The notes under the pieces are model-generated. The model made no database searches. It saw only the letters and a program-made list of their open reading frames with translations, and was not told the DNA's origin. This document shows, piece after piece, positions 4,080 through 11,126 of a stretch of 64,000 nucleotides of DNA (the stretch's first letter is position 1; every line of letters begins with the position of its first letter). The stretch lies in assembly GCA_035084275.1 (NCBI GenBank), contig CM068744.1, positions 4,774,001 through 4,838,000 of the forward strand, given 5' to 3'. Source of the stretch: Hydrolagus colliei (lineage: Eukaryota). The translations under genes and the position numbers were made by a program.

Positions 4080-6629
4080 TTATCGTACCACTAGGCAAGA
4101 AACACATAATTTAGATGGTCCAATGCAGTCATCATGGCAAAATGCCCCACATCCTTTGCATATGATCATGGCTTTAAGCCTGCAGTAGCACTTGGAAGGA
4201 GCGTCCTCCAGGTTGCCGCCTTCGGGGAACATTTGGACAGAGTTGCCGTGGCTGCCTGTATTTATGGACTGACCAGCGGGAAGTGTCGTAACAGTCACAG
4301 AAAAGGATACCATATTTCCAGAGCTGTTTGAGACTTGGCTGTACACAGACATCTCTGTGACAGCAGAGCAATGGTTCATCTGTGGCGTAGAAGGAACGCC
4401 GATGCCGCTGCCGTGAACGGGCTTAAATGCGAACTGGGAACTTGCTCGGTTTCCGTACGGGGGGAACTTTTGTTGGTGCAATGGCTGAGAGGGTTGTTGA
4501 AAGCCTACAGACAGGTTCGGTAACCTGTAAGAGTCTGGATAGTTTGGATTTAGTTTGCCACCAGTCTGAGCAAAGTTAGATTGCAGTCCCTGGTTGAACT
4601 CCTTTGCCACTTGTGCGGCAGACAATAAAGGCGTGTTCTCCTTTTCAGTTTGTCGATAATCATGCATTGGAGCTTCTACCTTCAAATATCCACTGGACAA
4701 ACTGTCCATGCGAGCGCAGGCAGTATTGTCACCCATCTGGGGAAAGTCGTGCGAGACTGGTTCGGTTTTGATTAATATAACCTCAGGATGACAGGACTTT
4801 GACCTGCTGTTCAGTTCTGGTGTGTGCTGAATGCTGCTATCAGCTGTTTTCGTGTTCCACTCCTTGATTTCCTTCTCGGCCGTGTGTGCCAGACCATTCA
4901 TACGAACCCGCGTCTCAATGTCTTGAACATAGGCACGTTTCCAGCTCTCTGAACCCCTTCCGTAGGTGGCTATGTTGAGCAGGTAATGACCAGATACAGC
5001 TGGCTTCAGGGCAGACTTTGTCCCCATCAAACCAAACCTCGACCTCTGACCAACGGAAACCCCTCCAGAGGAAAATCCTGAGCTATTCACTCCGTGCTGT
5101 AAAGATTCACAAACAGGACCCAAGATTTGACTCTGGGCGTTGCTGCTGCGGTCCTGAGTGGGCCTGGTTGGCATTTCTGGTTCCACGTGTCCATGTTCTG
5201 CGTTTGTGCTTCTCCTCTCTTCGTTGGTACAACTGTGCTTTGAGGTCTGTTCAAGCTGTTCCCATTGATCAGTAGATGCAACAACTTGTCCTGACATTGT
5301 CTGAGATTGTGTTCTTCCAATAAGGTCAGCAGTTACCTTACACAACTTCTGCATTACAGTGTTGTCATTTCTGACCGTCACCGTTACCGCTGTCCCTTCA
5401 TCAACTGATGTCTTCACCACATCATCTGGCACGGCTTTAGAAATCTGATTAACAGGTTTAAGCTCTACTTTGGTCAGAGGCTTCGGCAGGAATTGCACCA
5501 GTGGCACTTCTTTCCCTCGGAGTAATTGTGCAACCAGTGGATTGTTAGCCGGGATGGAGGAACCCGACTTCACTACGATTCCACAAACAGATCCTTGTGG
5601 TTTAAGGCTGGGTACATCGTGCGGAGTGCAAAGCGACTGTGCAGATACAGCAGAAGTTACTGCAGGACTTTCTAGATTTGAATTTGCTGAGGGAAGTGGG
5701 GAGGCCACTTTTAGAGTTCCAGCTGTGCTCCCAGATGTTACAGAAACAGAACCAGCTGTTGCGGCCACCCCACTGGTTGAAGATGGAACTGGAAAGTTGC
5801 TTTGTTTATTAATGGACGTGGAGGCCAGCTGGGGATCAAAGGACAGCTTTCTCCCCACATTTGATATCCTAACATTAGAGTCTGTGGAGGGTTGTTGGTT
5901 CGTCACTCGACCTTGCTTACTATGCACGGTGACATTTCCTGAGCTTTGAGTTACTGCATTTGCAGTCTCGGAGTTTCTGAGGACCGATACAGGTTTCAAA
6001 GCCTCTCGCAAGGTAGGATTGCAAGTCTGCTTCACAGTTTGTGTCTGCAACGTAGCAGGAGAGGCCTTTGTTGTACTCATATTTGTTATCATTGGACTTG
6101 GCTTTGGGGACACAAATACAGTCACGGAGGGTGCTATGTGCTCACTCGATAATGTCAATGCTGATTTTGTGACCGCTGTAACTGACGCTGTGCATCTGTT
6201 GGGGCTTGCGGTGTGGGCTGCAGACACAGATTGCGCCAGGGTGGCTTGCTGTAATTGTGTTCTTGAATCCAGATTGGTTGCTGGCTTGATCGTAGCCTCT
6301 TCCAATGGTTTGGACAGTTGTCCTGGAGAATCAGACAAGGACCCTCCAACACCTCGCCTGCCTCCAGTTCTGTCCATTTCCACTGCACCGCCTGGTGGCC
6401 TGACTTCGCCCATTCCGCCCCCTCCTCCCGGGCCAGGGCCTGGCACGGCTCCGCCTGCAGCTGCTGCGGCGGCTGCTCTCTGGGCTTTGGCAAGCTGAGC
6501 TTTTGCTTTGATGTCTGCGAGAGTCCTGGCTCCGGTTCTCCCTGGACTAATGACGAGGGGTGAGAAAGTGGCCCTTGGAGAGACCTGACCACTCGGACTA
6601 GGGATGGATCGGATTCTTGAGATTGGAAT
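4080..6629 (-). CDS. ASXL2: ASXL2 last coding exon (ASXM1, ASXM2 with LxxLL, C-terminal PHD finger)
   Basis: Acceptor ttacag|ATT at 6629. Encodes IPISRI...[25 protein letters not shown] (ASXM1), [20 protein letters not shown] (ASXM2) and [36 protein letters not shown] (PHD). 2550 nt, phase 0. Confidence 0.97.
6155..6580 (-). CDS. ASXL2 TF overlapping +1-frame ORF (putative ribosomal frameshift product, 141 aa, EHNY motif)
   Basis: The +1 frame is open from the slippery site to a stop at 6155-6157. Encodes [10 protein letters not shown]...[12 protein letters not shown]...QNQH*. Confidence 0.75.
6579..6586 (-). other. Putative programmed frameshift site AG_GUC_UCU
   Basis: Zero-frame codons CAG GTC TCT (Q-V-S) give the RG_GUC_UCU motif reported for ASXL2 and for arterivirus -2 frameshifting. 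Confidence 0.7.
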
Positions 6630-7157
6630 CTGTAAGGCAATTGAAATTGGGAACAAAATTAAAATACAAATACAAATGTTGGTATTCTCAACCGAATGTA
6701 GTTTTTTTTTAAATTTAACAAATCACGTTTGGATTTTATTATTAATGTAGTTTGGGTTTTTGGCATTTACAGCAATCTAAAGGGAAATTGTAAAGAACGT
6801 GATCCCGAATTCGTTTTCGGTAACAAACGAAAACGTTTGTGTGCATTTGTGTGGTTACTAGGTAAGGAAGGATTGAGCCAAGCTGTGACAGTCACTCAGA
6901 CAAGGTTTCAGAGGGTGCCTGGCAACCATTAGCTCCATTTGAAGGGAAACTTTCAAGAGAGAAGGGAGGAAAACTGTGTTTTCTTTAAATCATTCCACCA
7001 CCACCTTGTAACTATTCAATACCTAGTGTTGAAACACGGTCAGATCAACCCACTTTAAGGAATCTCTATCAAGGTAATAGTGCAGGTGAGTTATATTCCG
7101 TAGGAGATTAACCTCTTTGTATATTGTGCACCGTGTCAGAGTTTCGCGTTCATATAC

Positions 7158-7920
7158 CTTGAGAGGTGGGACTTTGGGTTCTGGTGTTGGAATTTTGTTT
7201 TCAGGAATGTGCTTTGGTGGGGTCCGAAATGACTGCTGGTCCATGACCCTGGGTTTTTTCTCAACAGTGAGCAGACCCTCTCCTTCATCGTCGCACTTCC
7301 TCTTGAGTCCCTCTGCGGTAACTTCCATTTTTTCTGTAGAACCTGCCTTTGTCGGTGGCTCTTGTTTGCAAGGTTCAGATGTATTGTTCTCCACCAGTGC
7401 TGAAGCCTCGGGTCTTTTGCTCTCTAATACTTTTGCACTCTCTTCCTTCAGCTGTGGTTTGGGCTCATTTAGATCTAATTCTGGCTTAGCAAACATTGCT
7501 TTAGCCTCAGACTCTGGAGAGGTTATGTGGCCTACTTTTGCAGTCTCTTTATCCTGCGATACTTTTGCAGTATGAGGGTCAAAGTCTACGACTTGTTTCT
7601 CTGATAGGTTAACCGTCTCCGCGGGTCTGTCTGCTTTAGGGGGTTTCAGATCTGCAGGTGATTCGTTGACAGGCTCTGCTGAAGAATCTGCTGCCTTCTC
7701 TGATATCTCATCCTTTTCTACCACTTTTATTGTTTCTGCTACTTTGGCCACAGCCTTGATTGTGCTTTCTTCTTTTGGCTCAACAAGCGATTCCGCCTTG
7801 ACGGCAATTTCTTGGGCAGCTGGCTGGATAGGGCTCTGTTTGGGTGGATGACATTTACTGTCCTGGGCACTGCCACGAGATGCAGTCAGCTTTTGGGAGT
7901 CTTCCAGACTTATACCAGAA
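7158..7920 (-). CDS. ASXL2: ASXL2 penultimate coding exon
   Basis: ttgcag|T TCT GGT ... AAG|gtatat. Encodes SGISLEDSQKLTA...LKRK...EKKPRV...KVPPLK. 763 nt, phase 2 to 0. Confidence 0.95.
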
Positions 7921-9902: not shown

Positions 9903-10008
9903 ATTTGACCATAGTAATTCTCATAAAAATGCTCCTTCCACTGTTCCACTTTCTTTTCCTTTTCAATCTCCTGTCGTATCCTCAGCTGCATCTCTGGAGT
10001 AAATTCCC
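9903..10008 (-). CDS. ASXL2: ASXL2 exon, DEUBAD/ASXH C-terminal part
   Basis: caatag|GG GAA ... CAA AT|gtaagg. Encodes [35 protein letters not shown]. 106 nt. Confidence 0.96.
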
Positions 10009-11126
10009 CTATTGAGAAACAAATAAAAAGCAGGGATTGACAGGATGAACAAAGTTCAGCGTGGACAAGAATGGTGCATTTGATATTCCTTCATCCCCGG
10101 GTGGATAGAGAAAGGCAATAAATCTAAAATACTCTATTTTGTCAGTGTTTCCCCAATCCCAGTCCACAATGTGCAGATAACATTGATGGTTTCAAAACGT
10201 TCGGTTCTATACTTTGATCTTATCTTATGATCTGTGTTATGATTTTTTTTAAACATATGATCTTGGTATTGGTGAACCCAAGACCATTCTGGCTTTGTCA
10301 AGGTTAAACCCTGAAGCGGCTTCCACAAACCAATTGCATGCAATTGGCCGGTCTGCTAGAATCAGCTTCACTTTGCAAAGGGGCCTGGCATTTATTCTAT
10401 CATTTGGTGAACAGGATTCTGCAGGTTATCCAAAGCCACGCAGTCAAACTGTACACGGGTGGAGACAAATGAGTAAAGCGCTGCCTTAGGAGAAACACAG
10501 CAGTGAAGCCAAGCATTGCGCCTTTGAGGTGTACTTGAAAGCAGATTCCAAAAATAACTTTTGCTTGCTGTTTCCATGGCCACAGCCTGCGTTTAATCTC
10601 CATTCACACTACCTCTAAACATGAAAGACTTGCCACCAATGTACATGCAGTACTTTAGTCTTCATGTAGCTACCTGGAGCTTATCATCTTAAAACAGGAG
10701 AAAGGGGACCTCCCCTCTGAAATAGCTTTATCCAAGTTAGGATAGTACACAGTAGAAAGTTGCTTCAAACAGAAATAATGCTCAGAACTGAAACTTCATT
10801 CAGTCAATTGAGTTTGAATCAGATAAGGATCAAATGTGCTCATAAAGAATGCATGACAACATGCTGGGAAAAATTCAATCCAATCTTCTGAGAGCACGGC
10901 TATGTGAACCTCTGAGATAATGCAGGCCAACTCACCACCGGCTGCGTCTCCTGACACCTAAGTGTTAGCCCCAATCAAAAGGAAGACATTTAGCCCACTT
11001 TCCATCACATCATTCCCTCATCATAACGTGTAAAAATAAACACAAATCTCACACTCAAAGCTACAGAAAAAAATCATCTCAATTGGGCAATTTTACAAAA
11101 TGTTTCCTGTGTGCGAGAGGCAGATG

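Follow-up and report, generated by a model that had tools for sequence, protein, structure and literature searches.

Conserved ribosomal frameshifting is very rare among vertebrate genes, and truncations of ASXL proteins are drivers of myeloid cancer and of syndromes of the Bohring-Opitz family. The window considered here, a stretch of 64,000 nucleotides from the chimaera Hydrolagus colliei (contig CM068744.1), contains the ASXL2 gene with an open second frame, TF, overlapping its last coding exon, and the question is by which route ribosomes might enter that frame. The ASXL-TF hypothesis has a weak point, namely that two paralogues would have invented two unrelated shift mechanisms, and for this reason a 2026 preprint, in its available text, prefers splicing, counting splicing plus duplication as the more parsimonious history.

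The ASXL2 ORF and its -2 site, as stated in the earlier note on this DNA, are already published. The new observation is that ASXL1, ASXL2, and ASXL3 share an influenza-like slippery sequence before an open second frame that ends in a predicted HCF-1-binding motif. A single site common to all three paralogues removes the objection of two mechanisms. We put at about 0.5 the probability that this shared site reflects one ancestral low-efficiency +1 frameshift, and not two separate inventions. What was seen directly is the slippery sequence and an open frame with EH[N/S]Y in each of the three genes, the splice joint of ASXL2, and a Phe-Arg footprint in proteins of other species.

The ASXL2 locus

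The gene in the window is ASXL2 (Table 1): its last exon, which encodes the PHD finger, has 86.6% identity with ASXL2 of Callorhinchus milii, and the locus is present in one copy in the genome. The exons encoding DEUBAD were mapped upstream at 22371-22207, 20196-20095, and 10018-9903. Stranded RNA from a close relative, sequenced in three runs of one sample at a depth of 5-10 per run, covers the last two exons, and the strand of the reads fits minus-strand transcription; among the RNA sets listed, none contained the window itself. A near-identical contig, X1, differs from the window at 6242, 6294, and 7311, and the RNA of the close relative matches X1 at the first two of these positions. The difference at 6242 changes the zero frame and is silent in the +1 frame, while that at 6294 is silent in the zero frame and results in the C. 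milii residue in TF; the differences are alleles or assembly errors. Short repeats that are transcribed and very abundant, and that probably form a SINE family, occur in many introns of the window as well as in the ASXL3 stretch L008:2350-3720.

Table 1. Features of the ASXL2 locus (positions in the window)
Feature	Position	Strand	Remarks
Last coding exon of ASXL2	4080..6629	-	Zero frame, 849 residues, ASXM1 to PHD
TF ORF as published	6155..6580	-	141 +1-frame codons + TGA
EHNY, predicted HCF-1-binding motif [DE]HxY	6251..6262	-	+1 frame; followed by S-K-P-P
LEAGE, conserved ASXL2-TF motif	6353..6367	-	Preceded by W-x-W; also across the TF alignment of the published supplement, as available
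C-rich decamer	6555..6564	-	15-24 nt past the slip site; not the arterivirus stimulator
AG_GUC_UCU, published candidate -2 shift site	6579..6586	-	Matches Dinan 2017
GT-AG intron, phase 0	6630..7157	-	528 nt; 16 joint reads, 3 runs of one sample
Penultimate coding exon	7158..7920	-	763 nt (3n+1); both ends backed by RNA reads of a close relative
+1 frame, upstream site to splice donor	7158..7225	-	Open; alone P=0.26 by chance
UCA_UUU_CGG, candidate ancestral +1 shift site	7224..7232	-	At the position of UCC_UUU_CGG in ASXL1
Exon with the end of the DEUBAD/ASXH domain	9903..10018	-	Upstream boundary approximate; phase-2 donor at 9903

The published site and frame

Early in the last exon, AGGTCTCT is read in frame on the minus strand as CAG GUC UCU (6586-6579), exactly where the earlier note had placed AG_GUC_UCU. 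After a -2 slip the next codon would start at 6580, and the frame ends with a TGA at 6155, which confirms the 141 open codons claimed there, as well as the junction Q-V-S followed by L-Q-G. The product was rightly predicted there to keep DEUBAD, the exons of which end at 9903, and to lose ASXM1, ASXM2, and PHD.

Chance levels were obtained by keeping the zero-frame protein fixed and redrawing codons from their usage in the non-overlapping parts of the same gene. Such redraws carried a mean of 5.7 stops over the 141-codon TF region, which was open in 0.06% of 20,000 draws (P=0.0006; overall range 0.0001-0.0006). Past TF, the +1 frame contains 38 stops in 690 codons, the longest open run being 81. 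The TF frame includes LEAGE and EHNY, both unmentioned in the earlier note, the latter with a chance level of P=0.04 given the zero-frame residues RTQLQ, and no Pfam domains were found in the TF region. For the three codons of CAG GUC UCU the chance levels are about 0.48 x 0.12 x 0.32, or jointly about 0.02.

The frame had been correctly identified as the ASXL2-TF ORF of Dinan, Atkins, and Firth (2017; PMC5644247): RG_GUC_UCU, the +1 ORF, LE[A/E]G[E/Q], and EH[N/S]Y are the same in the available parts of that paper, TF has 138 codons in C. milii versus 141 here, and, compared by eye, the window peptide is close to the C. milii TF peptide of its supplement. The same paper already lists ghostshark (C. 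milii) ASXL2 with the site and the 138-codon TF, and dates ASXL2-TF to the bony/cartilaginous ancestor; thus the jawed-vertebrate dating of the earlier note agrees with it and is not novel. According to its text, RG_GUC_UCU is invariant in 129 species except lizards and teleosts, is identical to an arterivirus -2 site, and lies at the 5'-most peak of synonymous conservation; the published values of ASXL2 synonymous-site suppression cover tetrapods only. EH[N/S]Y is described there as invariant in TF, and the HCF-1-binding motif is defined as [DE]HxY.

No TF-frame AUG for internal initiation occurs in the last ASXL2 exon. A +1-frame AUG is present at 7288-7286 (minus strand), where the TF frame is open, and precedes the UUU_C site described below by 20 codons; internal initiation there was set aside, the codon lying deep inside the coding region. 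In a weak search, none of 510 candidate database proteins of 276-2000 residues contained the ASXL2 TF frame, and none of 625 pattern matches in metagenome contigs was confirmed as orthologous vertebrate DNA.

A candidate +1 site shared by three paralogues

The -2 slip advanced in the earlier note could still operate, but it has a rival overlooked there: 39 codons upstream lies an ASXL1-type +1 site leading into the same frame. The UUU_CGN core of the PA-X/PLEKHM2/ASXL1 class occurs in frame at 7229-7224, within UCA_UUU_CGG, one exon upstream of AG_GUC_UCU, and it is the only in-frame UUU_CG in the 1104 ASXL2 codons examined. The +1 frame starts before the slip site, being open from 66 codons upstream of 7229 and across the RNA-supported intron; the TF tail read from the upstream site, through the intron junction and into the last exon, has 180 residues. 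Two chance levels weigh against +1 entry: the 39 codons between the sites would be open with P=0.17, and UUU_CGN is expected, given Phe-Arg, at 0.30 in ASXL2 and 0.28 in ASXL3. CGG makes up 5% and 8% of the control Arg codons in ASXL2 and ASXL3, respectively. YCC is found in the E site only in ASXL1 (UCC); since ASXL2 and ASXL3 have UCA there, their sites are variants of the YCC_UUU_CG class.

A genome search revealed two ASXL2 paralogues, on contigs 26 and 2. The first is ASXL1, with UCC_UUU_CGG (L009:5271-5263, minus strand) and a 161-residue tail matching the published C. milii ASXL1-TF. The second, near 96.70 Mb, is ASXL3, its best hits all being ASXL3 (95% to C. milii). It carries UCA_UUU_CGG at L008:1415-1423 (UUU_CGN core at L008:1418-1423), followed by a +1 frame that crosses the junction, stays open for 147 residues, and has EHNY (L008:5070-5081) 12 codons before the stop. 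All three paralogues have CAG UCN UUU CGG AC after K-x-P-R, 24-26 codons before the same phase-0 junction, and their +1 tails of 161 (ASXL1), 180 (ASXL2), and 147 (ASXL3) residues stop 12-31 codons past EH[N/S]Y. ASXL3 again has one in-frame UUU_CG, at the shared position, in the 1736 codons examined. Synonymous sites of the paralogues have otherwise diverged, as only 9 of the 32 shared degenerate PHD codons, used as a control, are identical across the three genes. Given the protein, the ASXL3 frame is open by chance at 0.05-0.06 and [DE]HxY occurs at 0.04; together with the UUU_CGN value above, these features are modest singly and have a product of about 0.0006 if independent.

For ASXL1 and ASXL3, the junctions were deduced from splice signals together with database proteins in which the joined sequence recurs, that of ASXL3 matching the C. 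milii ASXL3 protein; RNA gave no junction reads for ASXL3 at an exon depth below 2, with intronic repeats dominating. In ASXL1, a second in-frame UUU_CG follows seven codons after the first, the repeated S-F-R-T being present also in whale shark ASXL1, and is possibly a second entry. In ASXL3, an in-frame GUC_UCU in the penultimate exon, at codon 307 of the stretch examined, 44 codons upstream of its UUU_CG and at a position different from that in ASXL2, is probably a chance occurrence.

In the available text of PMC5644247, a human screen found ASXL2 and ASXL3 to be without an influenza-like +1 site, and ASXL3 is described as lacking a conserved +1 ORF or EHxY. In contrast, in this genome UCA_UUU_CGG is present in ASXL2, and ASXL3 has UCA_UUU_CGG, a 147-codon tail, and EHNY. 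The upstream ASXL2 site, ASXL3-TF, and the exon-skipping route considered below were not found in the literature searched, outside of which lie subscription journals, figures, and preprint supplements.

Footprints in other species

Codon-level data come from the window genome and the published human sequence; the wider ASXL2 survey covered amino acids only, in the best 120 of 365 ASXL2-like hits, among which mammals, lizards, and the coelacanth are absent. In a 30-residue interval anchored on the ASXM1 motif, F-R was found in these 120 in 15/15 cartilaginous fishes, 19/19 amphibians, 50/56 birds, and the single paddlefish (1/1), and in none of the 15 teleosts, against a background of 37/4167 intervals; 12 of the 14 unnamed proteins were too short to score. 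Anchoring on the exon junction instead was stricter and placed fewer proteins of the same set; it gave 13/13, 13/14, 43/55, 1/1, and 0/15, respectively, and in fishes and amphibians F preceded the junction by 24 residues. Related species are non-independent, and the teleost loss is one event. Of the 56 bird proteins in the first count, 54 have R, Q, H, or L after the F.

Over the best 120 of 365, the residue after F is R in 86 proteins, Q in 3, H in 1, P in 1, and K in none, the absence of K being what CGN codons would lead one to expect. As different residues are found at the E-site position (A 52, L 15, S 10, P 7 in the same set), most species cannot have YCC at the site, which is a point against +1 entry, and F-R across species could be a protein motif instead. 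In human ASXL2, CCA_UUU_CAG precedes the junction by 24 codons and lies where the TF frame is open (text of Fig. S4, PMC5644247); the poor A-site codon of UUU_CAG is another such point. The teleosts of the best-120 set retain the V-S of the -2 site in 15 cases of 15, and both F-R and [RG][AT]QL, the footprint of EHNY, are absent from all 15.

For ASXL3, among the best 120 of 625 hits, [RG][AT]QL was found in 13/16 cartilaginous and 0/104 bony-vertebrate proteins, and F followed by R or Q in 9 of the 16 cartilaginous ones, from chimaera and sharks. Six ray/skate-type proteins of this set (one partial) are without the Phe, five of them keeping RTQL, which speaks against the +1 reading. Since RAHL of bony vertebrates is by amino acids still compatible with EHxY, the loss of EHxY from their ASXL3 rests on Dinan et al. 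Stops forced in the +1 frame by Met-[KNTIM] between the site and the motif number 0 in the 16 cartilaginous ASXL3 and also 0/103 in the bony controls, so this test has no power. For an older dating, no jawless or invertebrate ASXL was recognised among 42 representatives, 11 of them named. A predicted lizard ASXL1 of 691 aa and an unnamed fragment switch from the zero to the TF frame and terminate behind EH[S/N]Y, for which assembly indels near the G-rich run are the likely cause.

Alternative routes into the frame

Entry by a -2 slip on AG_GUC_UCU, the A-site tRNA-Ser re-pairing on UCU to give Q-V-S, L-Q-G, and a 141-residue tail, is possible but in our view doubtful; the upstream UUU_CGG would then be a relic or a protein constraint, and the +1 and -2 entries may both work. 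It is favored by the presence of the site in frame, by its reported invariance and identity with the arterivirus site (PMC5644247), and by the codon choice given above. The arterivirus -2 shift, however, requires CCCANCUCC after a 9-11 nt spacer, PCBP, and the viral nsp1beta (PMC4937337). The C-rich stretch proposed as a stimulator in the earlier note has to be rejected, as CCCANCUCC is absent from the 79 nt downstream and the spacer is 14 nt; the available text of PMC4937337 names no cellular counterpart of nsp1beta. RNA structure downstream of either ASXL2 site is no better than in shuffles (z from +0.9 to +1.3, and from +1.2 to +1.3 at the -2 site). Further points against the -2 slip are the retention of V-S by all 15 teleosts lacking TF, the arowana ASXL2 with the GUC_UCU site and an ORF of just 20 codons (PMC5644247), and the absence of AG_GUC_UCU from the TF regions of ASXL1 and ASXL3 here, though both have TF. 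The literature available to us contained no validation of this mechanism.

Splicing offers a concrete rival, since the length of the penultimate exon is 3n+1 and a transcript skipping it would pass from the phase-2 donor at 9903, where the DEUBAD exons end, straight into the +1 frame of the last exon, with no frameshift at all. The exon is 3n+1 in all three paralogues (763 nt in ASXL2, and 844 and 1087 nt by inferred acceptors), the skip would read through to the TF stop with EHNY, dual coding would set in where the last exon begins, close to GUC_UCU, and the parsimony argument of the 2026 preprint points the same way. Nevertheless, we consider this route unlikely. Against the 16 reads of the canonical joint, no skip joint was seen among the joints and loose ends listed, at a depth of 5-10 per run; the weak search of 276-2000-residue proteins gave no match to the TF frame; Dinan et al. 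found no such human isoform, in the text available (PMC5644247); and the conserved UUU_CG inside the skipped exon would be left unexplained. Alternative acceptors of the last exon entering the +1 frame (11 YAG in ASXL2) were rejected, with no read support and none clearly common to the three genes.

That the frame is not purposefully translated at all, the frame and motifs being zero-frame by-products or relics of a slow genome, is most plausible for ASXL3, the features of which are each moderately unlikely, and is consistent with the lack of a Pfam domain and with the zero-frame identity to C. milii, which inside TF (127/139) barely exceeds that in the rest of the exon (607/692), but it is highly improbable given the openness of the ASXL2 frame, the scrambled synonymous sites of the paralogues elsewhere, the published synonymous-site suppression and invariant EH[N/S]Y (PMC5644247), and, in the available text of the 2026 preprint, selection in both frames of ASXL1 and ASXL2 (dN/dS below 1) and one ASXL1 TF peptide in PeptideAtlas.

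Proposed mechanism and history

In the preferred reading, that of an ancestral +1 frameshift, a small share of ribosomes would enter the ASXL2 TF frame by a +1 slip at UCA_UUU_CGG (7232-7224): while CGG occupies the A site, the P-site tRNA-Phe would re-pair from UUU to UUC at 7229-7226. By analogy with PA-X and PLEKHM2, an efficiency of about 1% may be expected, and probably a lower one with UCA in the E site. Such an E site is plausible, since changes of the E-site codon reduce UCC_UUU_CGU shifting in PA-X by 40-70% and do not abolish it (PMC3498833, available text), and amalgaviruses share the UUU_CGN frameshift core (PMC5052127, available text). The predicted product would read Q-S-F and then G-P, retain HARE-HTH and DEUBAD (BAP1 binding), and have ASXM1, ASXM2, and PHD replaced by a 180-residue disordered tail, the EHNY motif of which may recruit HCF-1; these functional steps are carried over from the proposal of Dinan et al. 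As the product terminates within the last exon, NMD is not expected. AG_GUC_UCU would then serve as a second entry, or else result from dual coding, with Q-V-S in the zero frame over R-S-L in the +1 frame.

The site, frame, and motif would be older than the ASXL1/2/3 duplications; teleosts would have lost them from ASXL2, and bony vertebrates from ASXL3. Thus we tentatively suggest, at somewhat less than even odds, a pre-duplication ASXL with one UCN_UUU_CGN site making a short isoform that binds BAP1 and HCF-1. Chimaeras would keep it in three paralogues, cartilaginous fishes would have an unrecognised ASXL3-TF, and ASXL2-TF of most vertebrates, perhaps including humans (CCA_UUU_CAG), would start about 39 codons upstream of the -2 site. 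If so, the predicted ASXL2 junction moves, reporters and peptide searches built on GUC_UCU only would miss it, and an ASXL3 product is added.

Comparison with known frameshift systems

The arterivirus nsp2TF has the RG_GUC_UCU slippery sequence in common with ASXL2, but it needs the downstream motif at its defined distance, PCBP, and nsp1beta, whereas ASXL2 is without the motif and the spacing (PMC4937337, available text).

PLEKHM2 and PA-X share with ASXL2 the UUU_CG core for P-site slippage and no need of downstream structure (PMC12551717 and PMC3498833, as available). In PLEKHM2, UCC_UUU_CGG gives a frameshift of about 1.3% with no extra factor, and the junction, Q-S-F then G-P, is the one predicted for ASXL2 (PMC12551717). 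Both are unrelated genes with a YCC E site, a measured efficiency of about 1-1.3%, and junction peptides, in contrast to the candidate site of ASXL2.

The closest counterpart is the +1 site of ASXL1, itself called unvalidated, that is, predicted, in the available text of PMC12551717. The ASXL1 and ASXL2 sites agree in position before the junction, in Q-S-F-R, in the UUU_CGG core, and in a frame that stays open over the intron to EH[N/S]Y. The ASXL1-TF site is UCC_UUU_CGU, and UCC_UUU_CGG in chimaeras, from which the ASXL2 site differs by UCA in the E site.
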